From: Mustelus asterias
Taxonomy: Eukaryota
Reading direction: 5' to 3'
Assembly (NCBI RefSeq): GCF_964213995.1
Contig: NC_135825.1
Location: 12,214,001-12,278,000 of the forward strand
Length of the DNA stretch: 64,000 nt
Of the stretch, positions 2,667-55,600 are shown in pieces. The stretch's first letter is position 1, and each line of letters starts with the position of its first letter. The translations under genes and the position numbers were made by a program. The notes under the pieces are model-generated. The model made no database searches. It was not told the origin of the DNA and saw only the letters and a list, made by a program, of their open reading frames with translations.

Positions 2667-5600
2667 CTGAAAGAAGGAAACAACATTCAGATCAGCCTCA
2701 TTTTCATTGTCGTTAACTGAGAGAGTCACATTGTCAAGTGGCACCTCAACCTGAGGGAGAACCACGTTGAGGGAGCGCCTCTTCTTGGGATGTGGGTGTC
2801 GCTGTTTAGGACAGCAATTATTGCTCATCCCTAATTGCCCTTGAGAAGGTGGTCATGAGATGCCTCTTGAACCGATGCAGTCCATGTGGTGTAGGTACAT
2901 CCACTGTGCAGTGAGGGAGGGAGCACCCATCGCATCTGCGCCAGTCAAAAACAAACCACCTGACTATTCCAAACCCAGTTTCCAGCACTTGGCCCATAGC
3001 TCTGTGTGCCTTGGCATCACGAGTGCACATCTAAATAATTCTTAAATGTTATGAGGGTCTGTAAGACACCAGGAAAACTTGCCTATTCCTCCTGGAAGAG
3101 GGCCATGAAATCATTTACATTTAGCTCAAAGGATGCATGGATCAGCAGTTCAACCAGACAATAGCACCGTCAACAGCAGAGCGCAATCTCCGTGCTGTAC
3201 AGTGATATCAACCCCTTTCTCGGAAGGAGAATTTGAACTCACAATCCATTGGTTTCAGAAATCAGGCTGCTACCAACTGAGCCCCTTCTGACACTGACAT
3301 ATTTGAATATTAAACATTCAAACTGGTTATAGTCCTCATTAATTCAGGACTATCGTTAGTGTTTATGTTAACACTGAGTAATTCAGTGTTTAGAACATGG
3401 AATTCTGAGATTTTGAGCAGCATTTTGTGATGATAGAATTTTTCGGCAAAGAAGGAAATTTGGTCCATTGCCCTCCATCGCTATGAAAGAATTTGCCATT
3501 TAGAATCAGAGAATCCATGCAGCGCACAAGGAGGCCATTTGGCCCATCGAGTCTACAACGACACTCCCATTGTTGTGTCTTTTCCCCAAATCCTCCTAAA
3601 TGTCTGCTCCTTTTTTGCTTCCCTTGTGAAAGCTGTTATTGATTCTGTTTCTAACGCAATCCATATCTTAACAATCATTTGCATCAATAAAATTCTCCCA
3701 ATTTCTCCCGCTGTCCTTGTTGTGATGATCTTAACTGGATTCTCTCGAGTATTCACTCACTTACTACTGGAAATAATTAGTCTCAATTTATCTTATCAAA
3801 GCTTCAAATAATTTTGAATAGATTTAGCAGACTATTTCCTTCTATTCTAATGATTCTTTGCCGGTGTTAGCTGTTGGGAGCACTCTTGTATCTGCAGCCA
3901 CAAGGATCTGTGTTCTCGCCCTACTCTAGGAATCAAAAATCAAAGCTGAAACTCCTGTGCAGTACTGAGGAAGTGCTGCACTGTTGGAGGTGCTGCCTTT
4001 CGGATGGGATGTTGAACTGAGTCCCCAATCTGCCTGCTCTATGGGCGGCATGGTGGCACAGTGGTTGGCACTGTTGCCTCACAGCGCCAGAGACCCGGGT
4101 TCAAATCTGGCCTTGCGTGACTGTCTGTGTGGAATTTGCACATTCTCCCCGTGTCTGCGTGGGTTTCCTCCGGGCACTCTGGTTTCCTCCCTCAGTCCAA
4201 AGATGTGCGGGTAGGTGGATTCGCCAAGCTAAATTGCCCCTTAGTGTCAGGGGGAACTAGCTGGGGTAAATGCATGGGATTATGGGGATAAGGCCTGGGT
4301 GGGATTGACGTTGGCAGAGACTCGATGCGTCAAATGGTCTCCTTCTGCACTGTAAGATTCTATGGATTCTATGAAACTATGGATGTATAAGATCGATGGC
4401 ACTTGATCTCCTGAAGAAAAACAGAAGCGTTATCCGAAATCACCCGGCGATATTTATCCCTCAATCAAAAACAGGTTATCAGTTCATTATTTTGAGTTTG
4501 CTGTGTGTAAATTGGCTGCTGTGTTTCCTGCCTCACAACAGTGACAGTGCTTCAAAAAGCATTTCATTGGTTGTAAAGCGCTTCGAGAAGTCAGATGACT
4601 GTGAAAATAAATGGAAGACATTCTTTCATTTTGTAAGTGAGACCTCTTAAGATGCTATCATTTCACATCAACTCTTCAACTCTCTATCCTTACGATTCAT
4701 CCTAAAGCAAGAGACATCAGCTAAAGATTGTTATTCACAATTTGATCTCCAAGAAATGGGAACAGGAATGGTTAATGGAGACCTTGTCAGTCAAGTTCTA
4801 TTTAATATTAATGGGATTACTGCAACATTTAGACATGTTTGGGGAATATTTTATGATCCTGATATTTTCAATCAATATTTTAATCAGTAACTTTGTTCCG
4901 AGTTGTTGAGGGACAAAGCAGAGTGAATTTTGTCAGTTGCAGTCATTCAGAGAGACATTAGGAACCGAACCAGCAACCAGCTTATTTAGAACTTAGAACA
5001 TAGAACATAGAACAGTACAGCACAGAACAGGCCCTTCGGCCCACAATGTTGTGCCGAGCTTTATCTGAAACCAAGATCAAGCTATCCCACTCCCTATCAT
5101 CCTGGTGTGCTCCATGTGCCTAACCAATAACCGCTTAAATGTTCCTAAAGTGTCTGACTCCACTATCACTGCAGGCAGTCCATTCCACACACCAACCACT
5201 CTCTGCGTAAAGAACCTACCTCTGGTATCCTTCCTGTGTCTCCCACTACGAACCCTATAGTTATGCCCCCTTGTAATAGCTCCATCCACCCGAGGAAATA
5301 GTCTTTGAACGTTCACTCGATCTATCCCCTTCATCATTTTATAAACTTCTATTAAGTCTCCCCTCAGCCTCCTCTGCTCCAGAGAGAACAGCCCTAGCTC
5401 CCTCAACCTTTCCTCATAAGACCTACCCTCCAAACCAGGCAGCATCCTGGTAAATCTCCTCTGCACCCTTTCCAGCGCTTCCACATCCTTCTTATGTGAG
5501 GTGACCAGAACTGCACACAATATTCCAAATGTGGTCTCACCAAGGTCCTGTACAGTTGCAGCATAACCCCACGGCTCTTAAACTCCAACCCCCTGTTAAT

Positions 5601-11600: not shown

Positions 11601-14600
11601 ACTACTAACACGAATACACCAGTTCAGACTGAAGGGGTCCTGCCGGAGCAGGGGGTCTTATACCTCGCCACCGGAGGCGGGACCCCACTGGAATGTGCCA
11701 TGATAACTCTTATAACAGGTAAACACCCTAACCCAACAACATTGTACAACCCCCACAGTAACAACACCCTAGCCCAACAGTAACATAATAACAACCCCCA
11801 GTGGTGAACCAACGATGGTTCACCACATTCACCCCTCCTTTAAGAACAAAAGGTGGCGGGGTGCAAGAAAAAACAGGTCATATAAACAGAATTCACAAGT
11901 CCAGACGGTCTGGAGGACCGCACCGACGCTGTGATCTCCTCAACACCGGTTGCGAAACCGGAGCAGGTGCTTGCGGTGGCGTTCTTTCCAAAACAACGTC
12001 TGGCTGTCCCCTCAAGGACTCCAGGGCCGGTTGGCCCTGGTGAGGCGATGGTGCAGGGGATCCTGGAACCTTTGGTGGTGGTGGTGGTGGTGATGATGGT
12101 CGCGCCGATCTCCCGAGTCTCAGGCAAGCTGTACATGGGAGTAAAAGTGTTATGCACTGGTCCCGGTGCTGACCGCGCCACGTCTCGGGAAGCAATGAGG
12201 AGTAGTGGATTCGTGACTGGGGGAATAGGAGCGACAGGAGTTGCTACGTCCCCTGCGGGCGCCAGGTCTCTAATGGAGACAGTGTCCTCTCGCCCGTCAG
12301 GATATGCCACATAGGCATACTGAGGGTTGGCGTGGAGGAGTTGGACCGGTTCGACCAAGGGGTCGGACCTGCGAGCCCTCACATGTCGCCGCAGAAGGAC
12401 GGGTCCTGGGTACGTCAACCAGGCTGGCAATGAGGTTCCCGAGGACGACTTCCGAGGGAATGAGAACATCCTCTCGTGGGGAGTAGCATTGGTTGCCGTA
12501 CACAGGAGGGAGCGGATAGAATGGAGTGCCTTTGGAAGGACCTCCTGCCAACGGGAGACTGGAAGGCCCCTGGATTTCAGTGCCAGTAGGACAGCCTTCC
12601 AGACTGTAGCATTCTCCCTTTCCACCTGTCCGTTACCCCTAGGGTTGTAGCTCGTGGTTCTACTAGAGGCAATCCCGAATGAGAGCAGGAATTGCCTCAA
12701 GTCGTTGCTCATGAACGACGAGCCCCTGTCGCTATGAATGTAGCAGGGGTACCCGAACAGGGTAAAAAGCTCACTGAATGCCTTGATGACGGTGGCAGTC
12801 GACGTGTCCGCACAGGGGACAACAAACGGAAACCGGGAATACTCGTCTATTATGTTGAGGAAATAGACATTCCGGTCCGTTGAGGGAAGGGGGCCCTTAA
12901 AATCCACACTCAGCCTCTCAAAAGGGCGAGTGGCCTTGACCAATTGTGCCCGGTCTGGTCGATAAAAGTGTGGTTTGCATTCTGCGCAAATCCGACAGCT
13001 TCTCGTCACTGACCTGACATCCTCCACCGAGTAGGGCAGGTTGCGGGCTTTGACGAAGTGGTAGAGTCTGGTGACTCCAGGATGACACAGATCATTGTGG
13101 AGAGCCTTCAAGCGGTCCTCCTGCATGATGGCGCATGTTCCGCGCGAGAGGGCATCCGAGGACTCATTGAGCTTCCCTGGACGATACATAATATCGTAAT
13201 TATAGGTGGAGAGCTCAATTCTCCACCGCAAGATCTTATCGTTCTTGATCTTGCCCCTCTGCGTGTTGCTGAACATAAACGCCACGGATCGTTGATCCGT
13301 GATCAGGGTGAACCGCTTCCCTGCCAGGTAATGGCGCCAGTGTCTGACTGCCTCCACAATGGCCTGAGCCTCCTTCTCCACCGCTGAGTGCCGAATTTCG
13401 GGGCCTTGAAGGGTGCGGGAAAAGAACGCGACGGGCCTGCCTGCCTGGTTTAGTGTGGCGGCTAGGGCGAAATCAGATGCATCACTCTCCACCTGGAAAG
13501 GGATGGATTCATCCACTGCGTGCATCGTGGCTTTCGAGATGTCGCTTTTCAAAGCCTTGAAGGCCAATTGGGCCTCCGGCGTAAGTGGGAAGGTCGTGGA
13601 CTTAATGAGCGGACGAGCTTTGTCCGCGTAGTTGGGGACCCACTGTGCATAATACGAAAAGAACCCGAGGCATCTCCTCAGTGCTTTCGTGCTAGCGGGC
13701 AAGGGAAGTTCAGTAAGTGGGCGCATACGGTCTGGATCAGGGCCAATGACCCCGTTTTCCACCACGTATCCGAGGATGGCTAACCTACGCGTACGGAATA
13801 CGCACTTCTCCCTGTTATAGGTCAGATTCAGGCGAGATGCAGTGCGCAGAAAGTGTTGGAGATTCGTGTCGTGGTCCTGCTGGTCATGGCCGCAGATGGT
13901 GACGTTATCCAGGTACGGGAAGGTAGCCCGCAACCCGTTCTGGTCCACCATTCGGTCCATAGCACGCTGGAAGACCGAGACCCCATTGGTGACACCAAAT
14001 GGAACCCTGAGGAATTGGTATAGACGACCATCCGCCTCAAAAGCCGTATATTGTCGGTCCTCTGGGCGGATGGGGAGTTGATGGTAGGCGGACTTAAGGT
14101 CTATGGTAGAAAACACTCGGTACTGCGCAATCTGATTGACCATATCAGAAATGCGCGGGAGAGGATACGCATCCAGCTGCGTATAACGATTAATGGTCTG
14201 ACTATAGTCGATGACCATCCGAGGTTTGTTCCCGCTTTTGACTACCACGACCTGCGCTCTCCACGGACTAGCACTGGCCTGTATGATCCCTTCCTTGAGG
14301 AGCCGCTGAACCTCAGATCTAATAAAGATCCGGTCCTCAGCGCTGTAACGCCTACTTTTAGTAGCGATGGGCTTGCAGCCAGGTACCAGATTTTTAAAAA
14401 GGGATGGTGTAGTGATTTTCAGGGTGGATAGATTGCATGCAGGGCGCTTTGGGCAATTTGGAGGCTGCGGCTGATTCCCTACTGCCAGTGAAGGGAGTGG
14501 CCCACCGTACTGTAGGATCACACTCTTCATGTGGACCATAAAGTTTAGTCCGAGGAGAATTGGCGCGCAAAGGTGAGGTAACACAAGGAGCCTGTATTGC

Positions 14601-17600
14601 TCGTAAATTGTGCCCTGTACCTCAAGAGTTACCATACATCGTCCTTGGATCGGTACAGACCGGGACCGTGATGCCATGGAAATTTTCTGCTTGGCAGGGA
14701 GAACCCGGAGTCCACACCTTTTAGCAGTTTCAGGGTGTATGAAACTTTCGGTGCTCCCACTGTCAAACAGACAATTCACAGTTCGACCACTAACCTTTAT
14801 ATCCATCATGGAATTTTCATGTCTGTAGTGCCTGGTCTGGTCCAGGGAGATCGACGCCACCGTTGGCCCCTGGGCGTCACTGCATGCTGCCGATGTGGAT
14901 GCTGAGGACCCCTGCTGGTCGCTCCTAGTCGTCGTGGACCATGATGGCCGCCCCCATGAATCGCACATGGGCGAGGGCGCCAAGTGCAGCGACTCCTGGT
15001 GGTCTTCCTCCTCCTCCGTCAGCCACGATGGCGCCATCCTGGGATCGCACGTGGTCGGACCTCGTGGGTACTGCGACGCTGAAGGAGATTGTCTCCGTTC
15101 TGGAGGGTTACAAGCTGCACTGCCGTTTTTAGGCTTGGACCTGCAGACTTTGCCGTAGTGGCCTTTTTTACCGCACTGGCTGCAGATTGCCGTTCTTGCC
15201 GGACACTGTTGCCGTGGATGCTTGGCCCCACCACAAAAATAGCATCGCTGGCCACCTGGAGCTGCCGCCGTCGTCGGATCGATCTGGGAGCGCGGGTTAG
15301 CGGGGCGAGGAGGGAGCTGAGCTTGCTCCAGCCACGTTGACTGCACGTGGTCCTCGGGGTACAGCGCCAAGCTCTTCGACGCCGCTTCCAGCATCACGGC
15401 CATCTCCATTGCTTGGGTCAAGTCGAGTTTCCCCTTTTCCAGCAATTTAAGCCTGATGTACGAGGACCCTACCCCTGCTACGAACGCGTCTCGGGCGAGG
15501 TCGTACATATATTGTTCGGCTGATACGTCTTTACAATCGCAACCCCTGGCAAGCTGCAGGAGCTCATTGGCGTAGTCCTCCATGGTTTCGCCCGACTGCC
15601 AACGTCGTGTAGCGAGGAGGTAACGAGCATGTATCTCGTTGGGTGGCTTCGTGTATCTTTTTTTTAGGAGCTCGACGGCACCCGGGTAAGTGGGAGCTGC
15701 ACGAATGGCGAGATAAATCATGTCGCTTACCCTTGCGTGGAGGACCTGGAGTTTATCACTGTCTGTAGTGATAGCTACTGAGGCTGCCAGGTAGTCCTCG
15801 AAACACTTCCACCAATGGTCGAATGTGTTAGCTGCACCGACCGCACGTGGGTCCAGTGTCAGACGATCCGCTTTTAAGATCTGTTCCATACTCTCTTTTT
15901 TTTTGTACAGCTGTGAGTTTTCTGTTACACAATAAAATTGATGCGCAACAATTAAGCACGTGGAACCAAGGCTTCGATATTGAAGGCTTTTATTGTGTAA
16001 CAATGGAACTACTAACACGAATACACCAGTTCAGACTGAAGGGGTCCTGCCGGAGCAGGGGGTCTTATACCTCGCCACCGGAGGCGGGACCCCACTGGAA
16101 TGTGCCATGATAACTCTTATAACAGGTAAACACCCTAACCCAACAACATTGTACAACCCCCACAGTAACAACACCCTAGCCCAACAGTAACATAATAACA
16201 ACCCTCAGTGGTGAACCAACGATGGTTCACCACAGTTTCCATGGAGATTTTTATGATCATTTGGAACATTTGGAATATTGTGTCCAATTCTGGTCACCAC
16301 ACAACCAGAAGGATGTGGAGGCTTTGGAGAGAGTGCAGAAAAGGTTGACCAGGATGTTGCCTGGTATGGAGGGTATTACCTATGAGGAGAGTTTGAATGA
16401 GCTGGGATTGTTCTCCCTGGAAAGACAGAGGCTGAGGGGCAACCTGAGAGAAGTTTATAAAATTATGAGAGGTGTGGATAGAGTGAACAGTTGGAAGCTT
16501 TTTCCCAGGCAGAAATGACAATTAGAAGGACGCACAAGTTCAAGATAACGGGGGAAAGATTCAGTGGAGATGTGCGGGAGAACTTTTTTACACAGAGGGT
16601 GGTGGGCGCCTGGAATGCACTGCCAAGTGAGGTGGTTGAGGCACTTATATTAGCTATATTTAAGGTTTTATCTTGGTAGACGTATGAACAAACAGGGAAT
16701 AGAGGAATATAAGCATTGGTAAACGTGATCAGCGCAGGAAGGGCCTGTTCCTGTTCTGTACTGTTCTTTGTTCTTTGTTCTTTGATCCCTTTAAGGGGCT
16801 TTCACCATATTGGATTATTTAATTGTTTAATTTGCCGATTTGTTAACTTTTAATCTGTCAGCTTCACCCTGAATTTTCATAAGACCATAAGACCATAAGA
16901 CATAGGAGCGGAAGTAAGGCCATTCGGCCCATCGAGTCCACTCCACCATTCAATCATGGTTGATTTCAACTCCATTTACCCGCTCTCTCCCCATAGCCCT
17001 TAATTCCTCGAGAAATCAAGAATTTATCAATTTCTGTCTTGAAGACGCTCAACGTCTCGGCCTCCACAGCCCTCTGTGGCAATGAATTCCACAGACCCAC
17101 CACTCTCTGGCTGAAGAAATTTCTCCTCATCTCTGTTCTAAAGTGACTCCCTTTTATTCTAAGGCTGTGCCCCCGCGTCCTAGTCTCCCCTGTTAATGGA
17201 AACAACTTCCCTACGTCCATCCTATCTAAGCCGTTCATTATCTTGTAAGTTTCTATCAGATCTCCCCTCAACCTCCTAAACTCCAATGAATATAATCCCA
17301 CGATCCTCAGACGTTCATCGTATGTCAGGCCTACCATTCCTGGGATCATCCGTGTGAATCTCCGCTGGACCCGCTCCAGTGCCAGTATGTCCTTCCTGAG
17401 GTGTGGGGCCCAAAATTGCTCACAGTACTCCAAATGGGGCCTAACCAGTGCTTTATAAAGCCTCAGAAGTACATCCCTGCTTTTGTATTCCAAGCCTCTT
17501 GAGATAAATGACAACATTACATTTGCTTTCTTAATTACGGACTCAACCTGCAAGTTTACCTTTAGAGAATCCTGGACTAGGACTCCCAAGTCCCTTTGCA

Positions 17601-20600
17601 CTTTAGCATTATGAATTTTGTCACCGTTTAGAAAATAGTCCATGCCTCTATTCTTTTTTCCAAAGTGTACAACCTCGCACTTGCCCACGTTGAATTTCAT
17701 CAGCCACTTCTTGGACCACTCTCCTAAACTGTCTAAATCTTTCTGCAGCCTCCCCACCTCCTCAATACTACCTGCCCCTCCACCTATCTTTGTATCATCG
17801 GCAAACTTGGCCAGAATGCTCCCAGTCCCGTCATCTAGATCGTTAATATATAAAGAGAACAGCTGTGGCCCCAACACTGAACCCTGCGGGACACCACTTG
17901 TCACCGGTTGCCATTCTGAGAAAGAACCTTTTATCCCAACTCTCTGCCTTCTGTCTGACAGCCAATCGTCAATCCATGTTAGTACCTTGCCTCGAATACC
18001 ATGGGCCCTTATTTTACTCAGCAGTCTCCCGTGAGGCACCTTGTCAAAGGCCTTTTGGAAGTCAAGATAGATAACATCCATTGGCTCTCCTTGGTCTAAC
18101 CTATTTGTTATCTCTTCAAAGAACTCTAACAGGTTTGTCAGGCACGACCTCCCCTTACTAAATCCATGCTGACTTGTCTTAATCCGACCCTGCACTTCCA
18201 AGAATTTAGAAATCTCATCCTTAACGATGGATTCTAGAATTTTGCCAACAACTGAGGTTAGGCTAATTGGCCTATAATTTTCCATCTTTTTTCTTGTTCC
18301 CTTCTTGAACAGTGGGGTTACAACAGCGATTTTCCAATCCTCTGGGACTTTCCCTGACTCCAGTGACTTTTGAAAGATCATAACTAACGCCTCCACTATT
18401 TCTTCAGCTATCTCCTTTAGAACTCTAGGATGTAGCCCATCTGGGCCCGGAGATTTATCAATTTTCAGACCTTTTAGTTTCTCTAGCACTTTCTCCTTTG
18501 TGATGGCAACCATATTCAACTCTGCCCCCTGACTTTCCTGAATTGTTGGGATATTACTCATGTCTTCTACTGTGAAGACTGACGCAAAGTACTTATTAAG
18601 TTCCTCAGCTATTTCCTTGTCTCCCATCACTAGATTACCAGCGTCATTTTGGAGCGGCCCAATGTCTACTTTTTGCTTTATTTGAAAGAAGCACAAACTG
18701 ACACATTGCGGATACATCTGGATGTTGGGAGTTTGACTGGCTTCCCAACATATTGTCAATTTCTGTGTATTTAACCCCCTCTGTGCTCCCCCACCCACCC
18801 CCACAGCCCCACCATTCAGCGCTAAACCAACAAGGTACAATTACTACCAACTGGCTGCTCACTTCACTTTGTTAATGTCTGACGATTGGATTGATCTGGA
18901 CTGTAAAAATCTGACAGTGTGATATTTAAGACATTTCAGAGACAGGAAAATATTCTGAGCATCGCGGGTAATGTCTTTCACAATATCCTGCAGTTAAAGG
19001 AATTGTTTGTCTGATTATGTTTGAAGTTCTTGATCAGAATGTTGGACAGGCCACGAATTGAGTTTGTGTCACAAGAGTCGGATTTCCAGATCTCTGCCCT
19101 CTAGCTGCCAGACTCTGCATTGCTGCAGAGCCTCGGGATATCGGAGCTGTCAATGTTTCCTTGTGGATAAAACATGGATCAGACATTTCAGTAATAAAGA
19201 AAATCATTCAGAATAATGTACCGTAAGATATTTGCAGCTCCACGGTTACCTTTGGATGTAAGTCAGGTATATCAATTCCACAGCGATACCATCCTGCATC
19301 TCCTGAGCGAAGATCCTCCATCGTAACAGCAAATATTCCTTGTGCCTTGTTATCTGTGATCGACATTCTCCCTCGCCGTCCATCTGGATCATCCGTTCTC
19401 ACTAAATATGAGCACTGTTCAGTCCAACCGTGACACCAATATTTCACGTTTTGTTTGTATTTCCCTTTATAATTGCAATTTATTGTGATCGATCTTCCCA
19501 CAATTCCTGTGACTTTCTTTTCTGCCCACAATGCACCTGAAACTGAGGAGACAACATTTCAGCAATTGACCAAGTAAATAACTGCTTCATACAGAGAGAA
19601 ACATTTTAATAAGATTTACCACTGTGTACAGAGGAAACTCTCCAATACCTGTATTCATCATTCTCTTTCTAGTTTGTGATCAATGAAAACATGAATATAG
19701 AGCCGTGCTGTCAGTGCCAAAGTACTTCACTGACAATGATTTCTTGTTATGTACAGTGGCCATTGTTATTGTGTCACCTTGTCACTCAAGCTTTGCACTG
19801 GCGCCTCTGAATGGGTGGATTGCAGGGTCAGGTCCCACTCCAGAGACTGGAGTATAAAATCTACACTAACATTCCAGTGTAATACTGAGGGACAAGATGG
19901 CTCAGATTTTCCTCCCTCAGTCATGTTCAAAGAGCTCGGTGATGCCATTCAGGTGAAAGGTTCATCTGACACCCAGGTCTGGAGGTTCCCTGTCATGGAG
20001 AAAATCCCGGGAATGGCTGGAATTTCAAAGTCCTAAGAGTGGGAGCGGGACTGGAATCAGGCTGCATACACAATTCGTGGAGGCGAATTGTCATTAAATT
20101 CAACACCTGCCTTGATTTAAGTGAGATTTTGGATGAACAGGAGTGTGGAATCCGGTGTGTGCAGATTAGAATAGTTAAGAGAAGGTTTGAACTTGGTGGA
20201 TTCTTATGGACAGCCAGGGTATGCCTTCTGGACAGGAAAGTTACTCTTTGGAAGAGGAAAGTTACTCTTTGGGAGGGGAAAGTTACTCTTTGAGGGGGGA
20301 AAGTTCCTCTTTGTGGGGAGAAATTTATTCTTTGGGACAAACTCTGGTGAGTGGTCAGGGCCAGAGTGATTATCTGGTTGTTTCAATTATTCTATTTATT
20401 AACCATGGCGCTGGGGCACAGAAACAGGCCTTGTGTCCAGCTCACCTCCGGGCTGAGCAGCCTGTGGATTTGTTCCTGGGTCACCCGTCTCGATTCATTT
20501 TTTAATGCCTTTCCTGACTCAATGAACACGACCCAGGGATGAGATGAGGAGATTGTTTTCACTCAAGGTGTTGGGAATCTTTGGAATTCTCCACCGCAGA

Positions 20601-31671: not shown

Positions 31672-34600
31672 CTGTCCAGAAACAGTCAGCCCTGTTGCCT
31701 TTTTATAGCCTTTCCAATTTCCTTCCTTATTCTTTTGCTGACAGTTTAATAAGATTGGATGGTAAGATGGAAGGGTTCTTCCATGGATGGGTTACACAGG
31801 AACACAGTAACAAGAGCAGCTCATTCAGCCCCTCGAGCCTGTCACACCAACCTGCAACTCCACACAGACACTCACCCAAGACCAAAATCGAACCTGGGTC
31901 CCTGTCTTATCTAATCCCAGCTGTGAGAATTCTAATTGGCCCAGCATCCACAGATTTTAGGATGGATTAGTTCCAGATTTCCATGACTAGCTGTGTGAAA
32001 ATAATGCTTCCTAATTTTACTCCTAAGTATCTAAGCCCTCACTTTTGGGTTATGGCCCCGTGTACTCCATCTCCCCACTGGGCAAAGAGTTTCTCTGTAC
32101 CCACCATACTGAATCCCATAAAAACTTCAATCACCGATCCCAGCAACCTCCAAGTGTGAGGAAATGCAGCAAATTTGTGCAATCTCTGCACATAATTTAC
32201 TCCATTCTTCCCTGTATCATTCTGATGTATTGATATTGCAGAGATGATGGTTTAGTGTCAATGTCACTGGGCTAGTAATCCAGAGGTTGATAGTAAAGTG
32301 CTGGGAACATGATTTCAACATAGTAGCTGGTGGAATATAAATGCAATGAATTCAATTTCAATTGATGAATGAATCTGGAATTGAAAATCTGACCAATGGT
32401 GACCAGGAAGCTTGTCATCAATTGCTGTAAAAACCCATCTGGTTGGTTGGGGATGGTGATAAACGGTCATAAATTGTCATAAATCCTCACTGATATCCGT
32501 CAGGGAAGGATATCTGTTTTCCTGATGCAGTCTGACCTCCATGTGACCCCAGACCCACCGTGATGTGTTTGATTCCTAACTGTCTTCTGAAATGGCTGAG
32601 CAAGCCACTCGGATCTGGCAATTAGGGATGGGCAACAATTCTGCCCTTGCCAGTGACGTCCACATCCCGTGAAATAGAACAAAAAGACACTGCATCCCTT
32701 CCGAGGCCAATATTTTGTTCCTGTGATTCGGACACCATCCAGAACAAACAATTCAACATTGCATTATAAAATCCTCCAGTGATAAAGTGAAACTTCCATT
32801 TATGAGTGGAAGTTATCCTGGACAAAGTCAGCTGATCACTTCAGGATGGATGCAGCTGCAACAAGGATCAGGAACATTGACACAATCGAAAACAAACAGT
32901 CCCCTTGATCTTTCCTACATAACATCAGCAACACTTCAAAACCAAACCATATAAAATGTAAGATACTTTGGGTGGACTTTCCACCCAAGTTCCTCTGGTG
33001 GGGTGAGGGAGGGAGGAGGGCGGAGGGGGCTGGACAAGAGCAGAAGATCTCGCGAGAGCCCCCAATCATGTTATTACTTTGATGGGAAGTCTCTTTGTGA
33101 TTGTCCCCAGCTCCCATCACTGACATCACAGGATTCCCAACGTTGAACAACATAATCAATTTGCATGTCATTATCAAGACCTGGCACCTGATCAACCCCC
33201 GCTCCCCCCACACCCCCCAACCCTCACTTCCACTGTTCGATGATCCACTCACATCAGTGTGAGGGCACACTGGTGTGCATTATGATTGATGGCCATGGCA
33301 TGTACCAGGAGGAAGTCTCACAACACCAGGTTAAAGTCCAACAGGTTTATTTGGTAGCACAAGCCACTAACTTTTGGAGCGCTGCCCCTTCATCAGGAGA
33401 GTGGGAGTTCTGTTCACAAACAGGGCATATAAAGAGACAAACTCAATTTACAAAATAATTGTTGGAATGGGAGTCTTTACAGATAATCAAGTCTTAAAGG
33501 TACAGACAAGGTGAGTGGAGAGAGGGTTAAGCACAGGTTAAAGTGATGTGTATTGTCTCCAGCCAGGACCACCAGTTACACGGTACATACTCTTGCAACT
33601 CGGCCAACGTTGTCTACCTGATACGCTGCAGGAAAGGATGTTCCGAGGCATGGTACATTGGGGAGACCATGCAGACACGATGACAACGGATGAATGAACA
33701 ATGCTCAACAATTGCCAGGTAAGAGTGTTCTCTTCCTGTTGGGGAGCACTTCAGCAGTCACAGGCATTCGGCCTCTGATCTTCGGGTAAGCGCTCTCCAA
33801 GACGGCCTACATTACACACGACAGCGCAGAGTCGCTGAGCACAGACTGGTAGCCAAGTTCCGCATACAGGAGAACGGCCTCAACCGGGATCTTGGGTTCA
33901 TGTCACACTATCTGTAACCCCCATGACTTGCCTGGGCTTGCAAAATCTCACTAACTGTCCTGGCTGGAGACAATACATATCTCTTTAACCTGTGCTTAAC
34001 CCTCTCTCCACTCACATTGTCTGTACCTTTAACACTTGATTACCTGTAAAATCTCACATTCCAACCATTATTTTGTAAATTGAGTTTGTCTCTTTATATG
34101 TCCTGTTTGTGAACAGAACTCCCACCTCCCTGATGAAGGGGCAGCGCTCCGAAGACCAGTGTCTTGTGCTACCAAATAAACCTGTCAGACTTTAAGCTAG
34201 TGTTGTGAGATTCCTTACTGTGTTTACCCCAGTCCAACGCCCTCATCTCCACAGTATGTACCAGGAGGGCAGACCCACTGCAGATGCTCAGGTGAGTGCA
34301 TCGCTCAAGTTACTATCAAGGAGCAGTGTCCATTCAGTGCCAGGGGTCAGTGCCAGGGTCAGTGTCCATGCAGTGCCAGGGGTCAGTGCCAGTGACAGCG
34401 TCCATGCAGTGCCGGGGTCAGTGCCAGGGTCAGTGTCCATGCAGTGCCAGGGGTCAGTGCCAGCGTCAGTGTCCATGCAGTGCCAGGGGTCAGTGCCAGT
34501 GACAGCGTCCATGCAGTGCCAGGGGTCAGTGCCAGGGTCAGTGTCCATGCAGTGCCAGGGGTCAGTGCCAGGGTCAGTGTCCATGCAGTGCCAGGGGTCA

Positions 34601-46600: not shown

Positions 46601-49600
46601 TCCATTTCTCTCCATCCTCCAAGCAGCCTGAACTACAATGTCTGCTATTATATCAGAACATCGCAGCTCTCCAGATCAAACCATGAACCAGGACCGAAAG
46701 ATTTAAATTTAATGGTGAGTGGATTAGATGAGATTTGGGGCAATGGGTTATTTCACTCGGGGGATGTTGAGGGTCTGGAACTCACTGCCTGGAAGAGTGG
46801 TCGAGGGTGGGAGAGGCGGATAACCTGATCACATTAAACAAAATGGATTAAACTTGAGATGCTGTAACCTACAGAGCTCTGGATCAAGAACTAGATGGTG
46901 GGATTAGATTGGATTGCTTGTTCAGTCAACCCAGTGTGGCACAGTGGCACAGTGATTAGCACTGCAGCCACATAGCACCAGGGACCCGGGTTCAATTCTA
47001 GCATTGGCTGTGTGGTCAGTGTGGAGTTTGCACGTTTTCCCCGTGTCTGCGTGGTTTTCCTCTGGGTGCTTCAGTTTCCTCCCACAACCAAAGATATGCA
47101 GATACCCATGGGGAGGTGATGGCCCAGTGGTGTTATCGCTAGCCTATAAATCCATAATCTCATCTAATGTTCTGGGGACCAGGGTTCGAATCCCGCCATG
47201 GCAGCAGTTGGAATTTGATTTCAATAAAGAAAATCTGGAATTAAGAATCTACTGATCACCATGAAACCATTGTCAGTTATTGGAAAACCCATCTGGTTCA
47301 CTCATGTCCGTTAAAGAAGGAAATCTACCATCCTTTCCTGGTCTGGCCTACATGTGATGCCAGAGCCAAAGCAATGTGGTTAATTCTTGACTGTCCTCTG
47401 AAATGGCCTCGCAAACCTCTCAGGATGGCAATAAATGCCACCCAGCCAGCGATGCCCATGTCCACAAATGAATAAAACAAATACTGGCACCTCCCACCAG
47501 GCACCAGGCAGTGCCAATGTGGGTGGTGCTGGCGGGGGAGTTGGCATTCTGGGGGGTGGGGCCTATTGGGGGCTCAATGTGTTGGGGGGTTTTCAGTGAC
47601 ACTGTGCACTGGGATCAGTGTGAGAAGGAGAGAGGAGGGGGACCAGGGCTGGCTATCTGGGTGGGGGGAGATCGGGGCTGGCCCGGGAGAGCTCTGGTAG
47701 GCCAGTGATTGGATGGTTGTGGGGGGTCGGGATGGCCAGCGATCGGGAGGCTAGCGGTGAGGGGGCCACTGTGCATGCGCCACTCTCCGCAGTGACAGAT
47801 CGGTGTGTGTGCAGTGGCTCACTCAGCACTATACTGCCAGCCTCTCTAGTGGGATTTGGACCCGCTCACCACATTTCAGAGTGAATCAATCTGTGTCGGA
47901 GAATCGTTCTGGTCCGTCCCTTATGTTGTCAAATGAGCCTCTTCAGACACTGGAGTTGCAACACATCAAGGAAGCTGATCAGGAAACGTGTACTCCCTGT
48001 GTTGTGGGATAGCCCGTCAGTGAGTTGCTTGTCTCTGTTCATTCCTTTGTCTTGTGGAGCTCAGGGTCTGTGTGGAGTAGGTAGTTGCTGCTATTGGTGC
48101 TATTGGTCACCTGGGTCCTCATCTGAGGCCCAAAATAAAACAGCCTGAGAACCACCCATGCTGATCTGATAGATACAATCACCAAAATGTAACCCAGAAA
48201 TACACATTACCATCTCTGTTGTGAAAGTCTGTAAATACTGATATAAAAACCTTTCACACAATCAGGCGAGAAATAAGCAGTGAGGTTCCAATGCTCCTTG
48301 GCATCTTTCCCAGTCACTTCTTCAGCCTCCCCCATTGCCTCTGTCTTCTGCCCTTGCTCAGTAACCCGAGCAGCCATAGTTAGATTTCACTAATTGCACT
48401 CACTGAGCGATTAATAGACTGAAATTGATAACCCGTCTCTCACTGGGGGGATTTGATCACACACGGATTGACACATTTAATGTTTCTGATGCGCGACAAT
48501 TAAGCACGTGGAACCAAGGCTTCGATATTGAAGGCTTTTATTGTGTAACAATGGAACTACTAACACGAATACACCAGTTCAGACTGAAGGGGTCCTGCCG
48601 GAGCAGGGGGTCTTATACCTCGCCACCGGAGGCGGGACCCCACTGGAATGTGCCATGATAACTCTTATAACAGGTAAACACCCTAACCCAACAGCATTGT
48701 ACAACCCCCACAGTAACAACACCCTAGCCCAACAGTAACATAATAACAACCCCCAGTGGTGAACCAACGATGGTTCACCACATTCACCCCTCCTTTAAGA
48801 ACAAAAGGTGGCGGGGTGCAAGAAAAAACAGGTCATATAAACAGAATTCACAAGTCCAGACGGTCTGGAGGACCGCACCGACGCTGTGATCTCCTCAACA
48901 CCGGTTGCGAAACCGGAGCAGGTGCTTGCGGTGGCGTTCTTTCCAAAACAACGTCTGGCTGTCCCCTCAAGGACTCCCGGGCCGGTTGGCCCTGGTGAGG
49001 CGATGGTGCAGGGGATCCTGGAACCTTTGGTGGTGGTGGTGGTGGTGATGATGGTCGCGCCGATCTCCCGAGTCTCAGGCAAGCTGTACATGGGAGTAAA
49101 AGTGTTATGCACTGGTCCCGGTGCTGACCGCGCCACGTCTGGGGAAGCAATGAGGAGTAGTGGATTCGTGACTGGGGGAATAGGAGCGACAGGAGTTGCT
49201 ACGTCCCCTGCGGGCGCCAGGTCTCTAATGGAGACAGTGTCCTCTCGCCCGTCAGGATATGCCACATAGGCATACTGAGGGTTGGCGTGGAGGAGTTGGA
49301 CCGGTTCGACCAAGGGGTCGGACCTGCGAGCCCTCACATGTCGCCGCAGAAGGACGGGTCCTGGGTACGTCAACCAGGCTGGCAATGAGGTTCCCGAGGA
49401 CGACTTCCGAGGGAATGAGAACACCCTCTCGTGGGGAGTAGCATTGGTTGCCGTACACAGGAGGGAGCGGATAGAATGGAGTGCCTTTGGAAGGACCTCC
49501 TGCCAACGGGAGACTGGAAGGCCCCTGGATTTCAGTGCCAGTAGGACAGCCTTCCAGACTGTAGCATTCTCCCTTTCCACCTGTCCGTTACCCCTAGGGT

Positions 49601-52600
49601 TGTAGCTCGTGGTTCTACTAGAGGCAATCCCGAATGAGAGCAGGAATTGCCTCAAGTCGTTGCTCATGAACGACGAGCCCCTGTCGCTATGAATGTAGCA
49701 GGGGTACCCGAACAGGGTAAAAAGCTCACTGAATGCCTTGATGACGGTGGCAGTCGACGTGTCCGCACAGGGGACAACAAACGGAAACCGGGAATACTCG
49801 TCTATTATGTTGAGGAAATAGACATTCCGGTCCGTTGAGGGAAGGGGGCCCTTAAAATCCACACTCAGCCTCTCAAAAGGGCGAGTGGCCTTGACCAATT
49901 GTGCCCGGTCTGGTCGATAAAAGTGTGGTTTGCATTCTGCGCAACTCCGACAGCTTCTCGTCACTGACCTGACATCCTCCACCGAGTAGGGCAGGTTGCG
50001 GGCTTTGACGAAGTGGTAGAGTCTGGTGACTCCAGGATGACACAGATCATTGTGGAGAGCCTTCAAGCGGTCCTCCTGCATGATGGCGCATGTTCCGCGC
50101 GAGAGGGCATCCGAGGGCTCATTGAGCTTCCCTGGACGATACATAATATCGTAATTATAGGTGGAGAGCTCAATTCTCCACCGCAAGATCTTATCGTTCT
50201 TGATCTTGCCCCTCTGCGTGTTGCTGAACATAAACGCCACGGATCGTTGATCCGTGATCAGGGTGAACCGCTTCCCTGCCAGGTAATGGCGCCAGTGTCT
50301 GACTGCCTCCACAATGGCCTGAGCCTCCTTCTCCACCGCTGAGTGCCGAATTTCGGGGCCTTGAAGGGTGCGGGAAAAGAACGCGACGGGCCTGCCTGCC
50401 TGGTTTAGTGTGGCGGCTAGGGCGAAATCAGATGCATCACTCTCCACCTGGAAAGGGATGGATTCATCCACCGCGTGCATCGTGGCTTTCGAGATGTCGC
50501 TTTTCAAAGCCTTGAAGGCCAATTGGGCCTCCGGCGTAAGTGGGAAGGTCGTGGACTTAATGAGCGGACGAGCTTTGTCCGCGTAGTTGGGGACCCACTG
50601 TGCATAATACGAAAAGAACCCGAGGCATCTCCTCAGTGCTTTCGTGCTAGCGGGCAAGGGAAGTTCAGTAAGTGGGCGCATACAGTCTGGATCAGGGCCA
50701 ATGACCCCGTTTTCCACCACGTATCCGAGGATGGCTAACCTACGCGTACGGAATACGCACTTCTCCCTGTTATAGGTCAGATTCAGGCGAGATGCAGTGC
50801 GCAGAAAGTGTTGGAGATTCATGTCGTGGTCCTGCTGGTCATGGCCGCAGATGGTGACGTTATCCAGGTACGGGAAGGTAGCCCGCAACCCGTTCTGGTC
50901 CACCATTCGGTCCATAGCACGCTGGAAGACCGAGACCCCATTGGTGACACCAAATGGAACCCTGAGGAATTGGTATAGACGACCATCCGCCTCAAAAGCC
51001 GTATATTGTCGGTCCTCTGGGCGGATGGGGAGTTGATGGTAGGCGGACTTAAGGTCTATGGTAGAAAACACTCGGTACTGCGCAATCTGATTGACCATAT
51101 CAGAAATGCGCGGGAGAGGATACGCATCCAGCTGCGTATAACGATTAATGGTCTGACTATAGTCGATGACCATCCGAGGTTTGTTCCCGCTTTTGACTAC
51201 CACGACCTGCGCTCTCCACGGACTAGCACTGGCCTGTATGATCCCTTCCTTGAGGAGCCGCTGAACCTCAGATCTAATAAAGATCCGGTCCTCAGCGCTG
51301 TAACGCCTACTTTTAGTAGCGATGGGCTTGCAGCCAGGTACCAGATTTTTAAAAAGGGATGGTGTAGTGATTTTCAGGGTGGATAGATTGCATGCGGGGC
51401 GCTTTGGGCAATTTGGAGGCTGCGGCTGATTCCCTACTGCCAGTGAAGGGAGTGGCCCACCGTACTGTAGGATCACACTCTTCATGTGGACCATAAAGTT
51501 TAGTCCGAGGAGAATTGGCGCGCAAAGGTGAGGTAACACAAGGAGCCTGTATTGCTCGTAAATTGTGCCCTGTACCTCAAGAGTTACCATACATCGTCCT
51601 TGGATCGGTACAGACCGGGACCGTGATGCCATGGAAATTGTCTGCTTGGCAGGGAGAACCCGGAGTCCACACCTTTTAGCAGTTTCAGGGTGTATGAAAC
51701 TTTCGGTGCTCCCACTGTCAAACAGACAATTCACAGTTCGACCACTAACCTTTATATCCATCATGGAATTTTCAAGTCTGTAGTGCCTGGTCTGGTCCAG
51801 GGAGATCGACGCCACCGTTGGCCCCTGGGCATCACTGCATGCTGCCGATGTGGATGCTGAGGACCCCTGCTGGTCGCTCCCAGTCGTCGTGGACCATGAT
51901 GGCCGCCCCCATGAATCGCACATGGGCGAGGGCGCCAAGCGCAGCGACTCCTGGTGGTCTTCCTCCTCCTCCGTCAGCCACGATGGCGCCGTCCTGGGAT
52001 CGCACGTGGTCGGACCTCGTGGGTACTGCGACGCTGAAGGAGATTGTCTCCGTTCTGGAGGGTTACAAGCTGCACTGCCGTTTTTAGGCTTGGACCTGCA
52101 GACTTTGCCGTAGTGGCCTTTTTTACCGCACTGGCTGCAGATTGCCGTTCCTGCCGGACACTGTTGCCGTGGATGCTTGGCCCCACCACAAAAATAGCAT
52201 CGCTGGCCACCTGGAGCTGCCGCCGTCGTCGGATCGATCTGGGAGCGCGGGTTAGCGGGGCGAGGAGGGAGCTGAGCTTGCTCCAGCCACGTTGACTGCA
52301 CGTGGTCCTCGGGGTACAGCGCCAAGCTCTTCGACGCCGCTTCCAGCATCACGGCCATCTCCATTGCTTGGGTCAAGTCGAGTTTCCACTTTTCCAGCAA
52401 TTTAAGCCTGATGTACGAGGACCCTACCCCTGCTACGAACGCGTCTCGGGCGAGGTCGTACATATATTGTTCGGCTGATACGTCTTTACAATCGCAACCC
52501 CTGGCAAGCTGCAGGAGCTCATTGGCGTAGTCCTCCATGGTTTCGCCCGACTGCCGACGTCGTGTAGCGAGGAGGTAACGAGCATGTATCTCGTTGGGTG

Positions 52601-55600
52601 GCTTCGTGTACCTTTTGTTTAGGAGCTCGACGGCACCCGGGTAAGTGGGAGCTGCACGAATGGCGAGATAAATCGTGTCACTTACCCTTGCGTGGAGGAC
52701 CTGGAGTTTATCACTGTCTGTAGTGATAGCTACTGAGGCTGCCAGGTAGTCCTCGAAACACTTCCACCAATGGTCGAATGTGTTAGCTGCACCGACCGCA
52801 CGTGGGTCCAGTGTCAGACGATCCGCTTTTAAGATCTGTTCCATACTCTCTTTTTTTTTGTACAGCTGTGAGTTTTCTGTTACACAATAAAATTGATGCG
52901 CGACAATTAAGCACGTGGAACCAAGGCTTCGATATTGAAGGCTTTTATTGTGTAACAATGGAACTACTAACACGAATACACCAGTTCAGACTGAAGGGGT
53001 CCTGCCGGAGCAGGGGGTCTTATACCTCGCCACCGGAGGCGGGACCCCACTGGAATGTGCCATGATAACTCTTATAACAGGTAAACACCCTAACCCAACA
53101 ACATTGTACAACCCCCACAGTAACAACACCCTAGCCCAACAGTAACATAATAACAACCCCCAGTGGTGAACCAATGATGGTTCACCACAGTTTCCATGGA
53201 GATTTTTATGATCATTTGGAACATTTGGAATATTGTGTCCAATTCTGGTCACCACACAACCAGAAGGATGTGGAGGCTTTGGAGAGAGTGCAGAAAAGGT
53301 TGACCAGGATGTTGCCTGGTATGGAGGGTATTACCTATGAGGAGAGTTTGAATGAGCTGGGATTGTTCTCCCTGGAAAGACAGAGGCTGAGGGGCAACCT
53401 GAGAGAAGTTTATAAAATTATGAGAGGTGTGGATAGAGTGAACAGTTGGAAGCTTTTTCCCAGGGCAGAAATGACAATTAGAAGGACGCACAAGTTCAAG
53501 ATAACGGGGGAAAGATTCAGTGGAGATGTGCGGGAGAACTTTTTTACACAGAGGGTGGTGGGCGCCTGGAATGCACTGCCAAGTGAGGTGGTTGAGGCAC
53601 TTATATTAGCTATATTTAAGGTTTTATCTTGGTAGACGTATGAACAAACAGGGAATAGAGGAATATAAGCATTGGTAAACGTGATCAGCACAGGAAGGGC
53701 CTGTTCCTGTTCTGTCCTGTTCTTTGTTCTTTGTTCTTTGATCCCTTTAAGGGGCTTTCACCATATTGGATTATTTAATTGTTTAATTTGCCAATTTGTT
53801 AACTTTTAATCTGTCAGCTTCACCCTGAATTTTCAGTGGTTTATTTGAAAGAAGCACAAACTGACACATTGCGGATACATCTGGATGTTGGGAGTTTGAC
53901 TGGCTTCCCAACATATTGTCAATTTCTGTGTATTTAACCCCCTCTGTGCTCCCCCACCCACCCCCACAGCCCCACCATTCAGCGCTAAACCAACAAGGTA
54001 CAATTACTACCAACTGGCTGCTCACTTCACTTTGTTAATGTCTGACTATTGGATTGATCTGGACTGTAAAAATCTGACAGTGTGATATTTAAGACATTTC
54101 AGAGACAGGAAAATATTCTGAGCATCGCGGGTAATGTCTTTCACAATATCCTGCAGTTAAAGGAATTGTTTGTCTGATTATGTTTGAAGTTCTTGATCAG
54201 AATGTTGGACAGGCCACGAATTGAGTTTGTGTCACAAGAGTCGGATTTCCAGATCTCTGCCCTCTAGCTGCCAGACTCTGCATTGCTGCAGAGCCTCGGG
54301 ATATCGGAGCTGTCAATGTTTCCTTGTGGATAAAACATGGATCAGACATTTCAGTAATAAAGAAAATCATTCAGAATAATGTACCGTAAGATATTTGCAG
54401 CTCCACGGTTACCTTTGGATCTAAGTCAGGTATATCAATTCCACAGCGATACCATCCTGCATCTCCTGAGCGAAGATCCTCCATCGTAACAGCAAATATT
54501 CCTTGTGCCTTGTTATCTGTGATCGACATTCTCCCTCGCCGTCCATCTGGATCATCCGTTCTCACTAAATATGAGCACTGTTCAGTCCAACCGTGACACC
54601 AATATTTCACGTTTTGTTTGTATTTCCCTTTATAATTGCAATTTATTGTGATCGATCTTCCCACAATTCCTGTGACTTTCTTTTCTGCCCACAATGCACC
54701 TGAAACTGAGGAGACAACATTTCAGCAATTGACCAAGTAAATAACTGCTTCATACAGAGAGAAACATTTTAATAAGATTTACCACTGTGTACAGAGGAAA
54801 CTCTCCAATACCTGTATTCATCATTCTCTTTCTAGTTTGTGATGAATGAAAACATGAATATAGAGCCGTGCTGTCAGTGCCAAAGTACTTCACTGACAAT
54901 GATTTCTTGTTATGTACAGTGGCCATTGTTATTGTGTCACCTTGTCACTCAAGCTTTGCACTGGCGCCTCTGAATGGGTGGATTGCAGGGTCAGGTCCCA
55001 CTCCAGAGACTGGAGTATAAAATCTACACTAACATTCCAGTGTAATACTGAGGGACAAGATGGCTCAGATTTTCCTCCCTCAGTCATGTTCAAAGAGCTC
55101 GGTGATGCCATTCAGGTGAAAGGTTCATCTGACACCCAGGTCTGGAGGTTCCCTGTCATGGAGAAAATCCCGGGAATGGCTGGAATTTCAAAGTCCTAAG
55201 AGTGGGAGCGGGACTGGAATCAGGCTGCATACACGATTCGTGGAGGCGAATTGTCATTAAATTCAACACCTGCCTTGATTTAAGTGAGATTTTGGATGAA
55301 CAGGAGTGTGGAATCCGGTGTGTGCAGATTAGAATAGTTAAGAGAAGGTTTGAACTTGGTGGATTCTTATGGACAGCCAGGGTATGCCTTCTGGACAGGA
55401 AAGTTACTCTTTGGAAGAGGAAAGTTACTCTTTGGGAGGGGAAAATTACTCTTTGAGGGGGGAAAGTTCCTCTTTGTGGGGAGAAATTTATTCTTTGGGA
55501 CAAACTCTGGTGAGTGGTCAGGGCCAGAGTGATTATCTGGTTGTTTCAATTATTCTATTTATTAACCATGGCGCTGGGGCACAGAAACAGGCCTTGTGTC

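Follow-up and report, generated by a model that had tools for sequence, protein, structure and literature searches.

A fold-back between LTR and primer-binding site points to self-priming in a shark Gypsy lineage without a chromodomain

A Gypsy retrotransposon lineage in the shark Mustelus asterias almost certainly primes its own reverse transcription. Judging from genomic sequence, we put at roughly 75% the probability of a particular form of this, in which the element RNA is cut in cis directly behind an arm in its 5' LTR and the capped 50-55-nt piece in front of the cut, with its last 13-16 nt paired to the element's primer-binding site (PBS), serves as primer. Experiments have demonstrated self-priming only in the fission-yeast element Tf1, and the trait counts as a hallmark of the Tf1/sushi chromoviruses. 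According to the accessible parts of the sources, the first 11 nt of the Tf1 RNA act as primer after RNase H cuts between nt 11 and 12 (PMC7175516), no tRNA site is present, the PBS complements the element's own LTR RNA and the cDNA end receives a copy of the primer (PMC11042837), and the Tf1/sushi group needs a three-duplex 'pretzel' and carries a chromodomain (PMC10085805). In plants, self-priming of Tcn1 (gypsy) and TAR/Houba/Osr-1 (copia) was predicted from PBS-LTR complementarity, and the trait was described as having arisen more than once (PMC6317226, available text).

The element lies in a 64,000-nt stretch of contig NC_135825.1 (positions 12,214,001 to 12,278,000; hereafter the window), for which an earlier sequence-only reading had proposed the self-pairing (Table 1). 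It has the features of Gypsy elements, namely TG...CA LTRs, a target duplication, a polypurine tract, the order PR-RT-RH-IN and no env, and its two LTRs differ at three positions. The best PDB match of its protein is Ty3 Gag-Pol (E 2e-54), the acidic catalytic residues of RNase H align with those of Ty3, and the nearest named proteins come from rays and sharks (78-83% in RT-RH). Gag contains two CCHC knuckles and Pfam detects no chromodomain, both as first read. Two further features came in addition to that reading: the YLDN motif of the RT and a hairpin at the 5' edge of the LTR, which folds of 100 copies show to be retained with variants in most subfamilies and which in the 3' LTR copy adjoins the polypurine tract. 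Of 132 related proteins, 95 have YXDN and 32 have YXDD or FLDD, with none of these found in 5; since the family is young, an RT with Asn at the third catalytic position is presumably functional. The window is part of a tandem array (12.12-12.27 Mb) of at least five 35-37-kb segments that are 98-100% alike. The second copy noted earlier (copy B, 52878-52957) does show the same pairing, but it shares target duplication and flanks with the first as part of this segmental repeat and is therefore not independent. The window also holds a non-LTR-type RT frame of 624 codons (16966-18840, PF00078), which we take to be CR1-like, and a 36-bp tandem repeat (34196-35026) with plus-strand open frames of 276 and 203 codons.

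Table 1 Features of the element in the window (positions counted from the first letter of the window).
Feature	Position	Strand	Basis
5' LTR, TG...CA, 296 bp	16234-15939	minus	
3' LTR; its own arm copy (11595-11581) has no downstream partner	11827-11532	minus	
Target duplication GAAAC	16235..16239; second copy 11531-11527	minus	
Hairpin at U3 edge, 10-11-bp stem	16208..16233	minus	sequence and folds of 100 copies
TATA box TATAAG, 32 nt upstream of Inr A	16069-16064	minus	
Initiator (Inr) TTCAGTCT; A at 16037 is the probable transcription start and primer 5' end	16033..16040	minus	spacing, three fossils
35-nt leader before arm; putative unpaired 5' part of primer	16003..16037	minus	inference
Primer arm TGTTACACAATAAAA, ends AATAAAA; putative cut between 15988 and 15987	15988..16002	minus	
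AATAAA inside arm	15994-15989	minus	
50-nt loop between arm and PBS	15938..15987	minus	
PBS TTTTATTGTGTAACA, exact complement of arm, begins at LTR+2	15923..15937	minus	
gag-PR-RT-RH-IN, one uninterrupted frame, 1349 aa, without env	11840..15889	minus	
RT motif YLDN instead of YLDD	13904..13915	minus	
Polypurine tract AAAGGAGGGG, then TGAA to 3' LTR	11828..11841	minus	
Copy B, same insertion in tandem segmental repeat; arm 52957-52943, PBS 52892-52878	48487..53189	minus	

The initial description of the junction agrees with the sequence in every part. The 5' LTR ends in CA, a single A (15938) follows, and then comes a PBS without TGG that is a perfect 15-nt complement of the arm across a 50-nt loop, with the arm's 3' end fixed at LTR+2. 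The arm contains a poly(A) signal, its copy in the 3' LTR has no partner downstream, and TATAAG and the initiator were found where they had been placed approximately. When the final 120 nt of the LTR were dinucleotide-shuffled 200 times, runs averaged 3.2 pairs and never exceeded 6, against 15 in the real sequence; the fold z of the whole region is only -2.1.

The 3.68-Gb genome was searched with a pattern in which only arm positions 1-3 (its last three bases), the GCCT that follows and the LTR end plus ATTT were fixed, and this found 12,349 junctions, against 7 for the reversed control; a looser pattern, AATAAA...CA.TTTATT, was dropped because background swamped it. Covariation was read from the first 100 of the 12,349 places, none dropped. 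Watson-Crick pairs are present in 90-100 of the 100 at positions 1-13, in 79 at position 14, in 74 at 15 and in 10 at 16, with complementarity stopping sharply at 15 in 47 copies. At position 8 all four bases occur about evenly and 93 copies are still Watson-Crick paired, where 25 would be expected. The 75 copies with at least 13 pairs carry 24 PBS types, and across 14 types arms pair with their own PBS over 11.8 nt and with one another's over 5.6 nt. The 30 closest copies include 28 that pair 15/15; in one of the other two the arm of the 3' LTR is still perfect, which dates the change to after insertion. Twenty further elements, with 86-99% RT-RH identity, show some ten other arm/PBS sequences, and at least 11 pairs from +2 are present in 17 of 21 elements (window included). 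A sister subfamily inserted in the protease gene of a window-family copy (L022:2975-3383) differs from the window family in arm and PBS at four compensating positions. Among six close subfamilies, compared in non-independent pairs, the arm differs at 58 of 225 sites (26%), the rest of the LTR at 9-13% and gag third codon positions at 24%. A stem maintained by selection alone would be expected to evolve slowly; rapid divergence without loss of pairing agrees with a PBS that is copied from the primer, as is reported for Tf1 (PMC11042837).

The same fold-back is found in distant relatives. Starting from 80 metagenome loci, 27 had a gag start and enough upstream DNA and 23 of these a definable LTR end; 15 of the 23 fold back over 9-16 nt from +2, each above all 200 shuffles. 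The remaining eight junctions have fewer than 9 pairs from +2, several with a near-terminal mismatch and two without an arm. Thirteen aligned RTs of the fold-back relatives are 38-70% identical, own pairing exceeds cross pairing (9.5 vs 4.6 nt in 22 metagenome types), and every branch sampled in a quick RT tree, whose only outgroup we take to be Mag-like, includes the fold-back. The covariation proposed as a check on the pairing is thus strong both within the genome and in distant relatives, and the arm-PBS fold-back is real and lineage-wide. Relatives of the lineage occur in rays, sharks, cnidarians, nematodes, a tunicate, an echinoderm and an insect, with none found in the viral contigs searched. 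Two members (P0010, P0030) are labelled as bacterial MAG proteins and are probably host DNA within MAG assemblies. A short stem behind the arm (RCCT...AGGY) beats shuffles in 10 of 13 distant relatives but was rejected as a general feature, as it does so in only 17 of 52 loops of the shark's own genome.

A host tRNA or tRNA fragment matching the PBS had been named as one observation that would overturn self-priming. TGG is found at none of the 100 junctions, and in an incomplete set of 56 tRNA-like sequences with 17 isotype labels the longest match to any of 41 PBS 19-mers is 9 nt (6 nt for the window PBS). A stronger argument is that, given 24 PBS variants and four bases at position 8, no single host RNA can pair with all. 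Long, false tRNA calls at retroelement loci, made by aragorn when introns were permitted, did match the PBS and were discarded. Tandem tRNA gene arrays with ~1.8-kb spacing lie at C16:97.2-98.6 Mb.

Upstream of the arm, promoter spacing is nearly constant. After five rearranged or unrelated places were dropped from the 100, a TATA box is present in 94 of the 95 ordinary copies, the distance from TATA to the Inr A is 31-33 nt in 89 of the 94, and the Inr A lies 50-55 nt before the arm end in all 90 copies with an Inr. In several subfamilies CA is absent before the arm. No consistent TATA or Inr is seen across the 15 distant relatives, so the long leader is established for the shark's own genome only.

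Mis-copied insertions provide a second view of the RNA 5' end, as some of them carry, behind the PBS, a reversed copy of LTR sequence from upstream of the arm. With patterns that detect solely copies reaching the Inr, 165 matches were obtained, and three of the 122 listed were background. Among the 119 listed matches that remain, 116 continue into U3, three end to within 1 nt at the Inr A, the predicted start 52 nt before the end of the arm, and, read by eye, none stops in the 11 bases after it. The three start-site fossils are independent: they belong to different subfamilies of one group and have different internal landing sites; each has both LTRs and an exact target duplication, two show 4-6 nt of microhomology at the joint, and for the C at the stops a cap-templated origin is indistinguishable from microhomology. 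No further such stops were found in TCAGACT subfamilies or with T as the next base. In a second set of 42 fold-backs, selected for reaching ~+25, 41 run to the U3 start and one stops in the leader at +28. The only sense-strand template that ends at the Inr A is the capped RNA, and we infer from these stops that transcription starts there, which together with the fixed TATA-Inr-arm spacing backs the original placement of the arm ~35 nt into the transcript. What the fossils demonstrate is that an RNA 5' end was copied by RT in the PBS register, and a second, uncut packaged RNA could have been the template. Three template jumps (L345, L357, L362) land near the RNase H/integrase border (element positions ~2980-3080), possibly a central plus-strand start or pause site. 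A mini-element, TRIM-like in size (L471:1284-1900), consists of two LTRs, a 52-nt inverted leader and a 3' UTR with polypurine tract, and has a 5-bp duplication at its flanks.

Five LTR-length insertions, all with target duplications, have T and 6-28 nt of reversed U5 directly behind the arm, the appearance expected of a primer that has been extended. Copying resumes at the G behind the arm in four of the five (with at most two A in front) and 5-6 nt later in the fifth; the pattern used gave 31 matches, five of them from the element and one of these an ordinary palindrome, and it favours resumption at or before G. On the opposite strand these junctions read as a strong-stop DNA that ended at G, folded back, copied its own primer and was transferred to the 3' end; DNA-level template switching at a quasi-palindrome could also have produced them. 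No further arm-end fossils of the ATTAAA type were found.

About 160 mis-copied insertions are LTR palindromes joined in the PBS register, and fold-back insertions in this register make up ~1% of junctions. In 43 palindromes (loci that include two duplicates of one event) two U3 ends are joined through U5, A and PBS; an exact 5-bp duplication accompanies 37 of these, and between the halves 146 of 10,965 sites (1.3%) differ, mostly by transitions. The palindromes are integrase products rather than assembly errors. They confirm the arm/PBS register in vivo and by themselves do not identify the primer; four continue beyond U3 and enter the polypurine tract, so that sequences other than the primer also served as templates. 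One locus (L245) considered as a copy of a long primer was rejected, being a full palindrome. Several damaged palindromes have left-hand breaks near the arm end, a position confounded by A-rich microhomology.

Of 95 copies, 89 have AATAAA or ATTAAA in the arm, and the loop contains no further hexamer of this kind. Folding predicts the signal to be fully paired in the 5' context (unpaired at most 0.02) and 0.33-0.65 unpaired in the 3' LTR context, and the cis helix itself is predicted at 0.87-0.99. It is plausible, on these models, that the helix masks the 5' poly(A) signal, as the sequence-only reading had suggested, although closeness to the cap may suppress that signal anyway. Masking is not universal, as the hexamers are found in the arm of 11 of 15 distant relatives and lie in the loop instead in two of the other four. 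A search for retro-copied, poly(A)-tailed transcripts yielded none.

These observations can be assembled into a single cycle. Transcription would start at the Inr A, and the arm, 35 nt inside the RNA, would fold onto the PBS in the register observed at the junctions. The cut in the RNA would separate the final A of the arm from the G that follows it, where four fossil junctions point, and by analogy with Tf1 the element's own RNase H may make this cut. Strong-stop DNA primed behind the arm would be only ~50 nt long and would transfer to the 3' R through the stretch between arm and poly(A) site. Plus-strand synthesis would copy the paired 13-16 nt of the primer into a new PBS, a step that would account for arm and PBS diverging rapidly while staying complementary. 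The unpaired leader would ordinarily have to be taken off, perhaps by RNase H after its complement has been made in the minus strand, and the fold-back insertions seen in the PBS register would be by-products.

An unlikely alternative is that self-priming works in trans or from the other end, the primer being either the 3'-LTR arm or a short capped transcript that ended at the 5' poly(A) signal and was trimmed back to the duplex, with the genomic RNA left uncut. The frequent poly(A) signal in the arm would suit it, a short capped RNA would equally yield stops at the Inr A, and palindromes entering the polypurine tract are what a 3'-end template would give. Yet from an uncut 5' end strong-stop DNA would run to the cap, whereas four of the five LTR-length fossils join at G, and a primer from the 3' end would have no end at the Inr. 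The high predicted probability of the cis helix and the four distant relatives without a canonical signal in the arm also count against it. Somewhat less probable still is the plain Tf1 mechanism, with transcription starting at the arm itself and a primer of only ~15 nt. The sharp end of complementarity at 15 is as such a primer would give, the window arm is preceded by TCCATT, which by consensus we take to be an initiator-like word, and distant relatives lack an upstream TATA or Inr; against this stand the TATA and Inr at textbook spacing 35-40 nt upstream of the arm, the three fossils whose leader copy is complete and ends at the Inr A, the subfamilies without CA before the arm, and the want of pretzel pairing in all 41 types. 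That the hairpin controls only polyadenylation or translation while a host tRNA or tRNA fragment primes is very improbable: differential hiding of AAUAAA is predicted and the tRNA sample covers only 17 isotype labels, but the arm complement fills the whole, highly variable PBS, TGG is missing from 100 of 100 junctions, and the LTR+2 register is locked in every family, which masking alone would not need.

The cis-primed cycle that we favour resembles that of Tf1/Tf2 of Schizosaccharomyces pombe and of the Tf1/sushi group in that no tRNA site is present and the PBS complements the element's own LTR. It differs from Tf1 in geometry, the paired 13-16 nt lying 35-40 nt inside the RNA and usually including the poly(A) signal. 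By spacing (90/90 copies) and three fossils, the pairing segment is apparently not the very 5' end of the RNA. Unlike Tf1/sushi elements, the shark lineage has neither a chromodomain (none in the window protein by Pfam or in the Pfam lists of the 120 best relatives) nor a GPY/F motif (GPY/GPF is missing from the C-terminal 250 aa across 132 proteins), and its RT motif is mostly YXDN. Pairing of the pretzel kind, between sequence behind the PBS and LTR downstream of the primer, reaches a duplex z < -2 in 0 of 41 types, and a chromodomain search yielded no chromovirus RT, the hits that were checked being host genes. The early impression that this is no typical chromovirus therefore holds. The plant candidates belong to other hosts, Tcn1 being a chromovirus related to Tf1/sushi and TAR a copia element, and the available text of PMC6317226 gives no mapped primer ends for them, unlike the fossil junctions of the shark element. 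Compared by description only, the lineage is like Cigr-1, MolGy and CsRN1, compact single-frame animal Gypsy elements; a frame of ~1200 aa would fit Cigr-1. The LTR start TGTGGTG fits the CsRN1 motif TGTGGYG in the accessible part of PMC3601003, and the main text of PMC6238403, as far as available, does not mention a PBS or primer binding. A different parallel is offered by HIV-1.

There, a local hairpin in 5' R hides AAUAAA, is present in both R copies and has no connection with priming, for which a tRNA is used. The shark element is similar in that a 5' hairpin is predicted to hide AAUAAA, but its partner strand is the PBS, which is present only at the 5' end. We found no earlier account of self-priming for a non-chromovirus animal clade in the literature searched, and primary papers from 1995-2006 and curated element databases, which were beyond reach, may contain one. 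The odds are about even that a non-chromovirus animal Gypsy lineage has here evolved its own self-priming, with a capped primer of ~50 nt, a 5' poly(A) signal silenced by the helix, a PBS rewritten in each cycle and mis-products that map start and cut to the base.

Exact predictions follow, namely the start base, the cut base and a 50-nt strong-stop DNA. If the reading is true, hundreds of genomic mis-products locate start and cut without an RNA experiment, so that integrated RT errors become readable as a map of primer ends, and the arm/PBS pair is free to drift. It would also account for PBS-less elements overlooked by annotation tools. The existence of a second, unrelated-looking lineage, which has more than 12,000 junctions in a single vertebrate genome, suggests that self-priming arose again, with a different geometry, and that priming without a tRNA is a common trait among animals.
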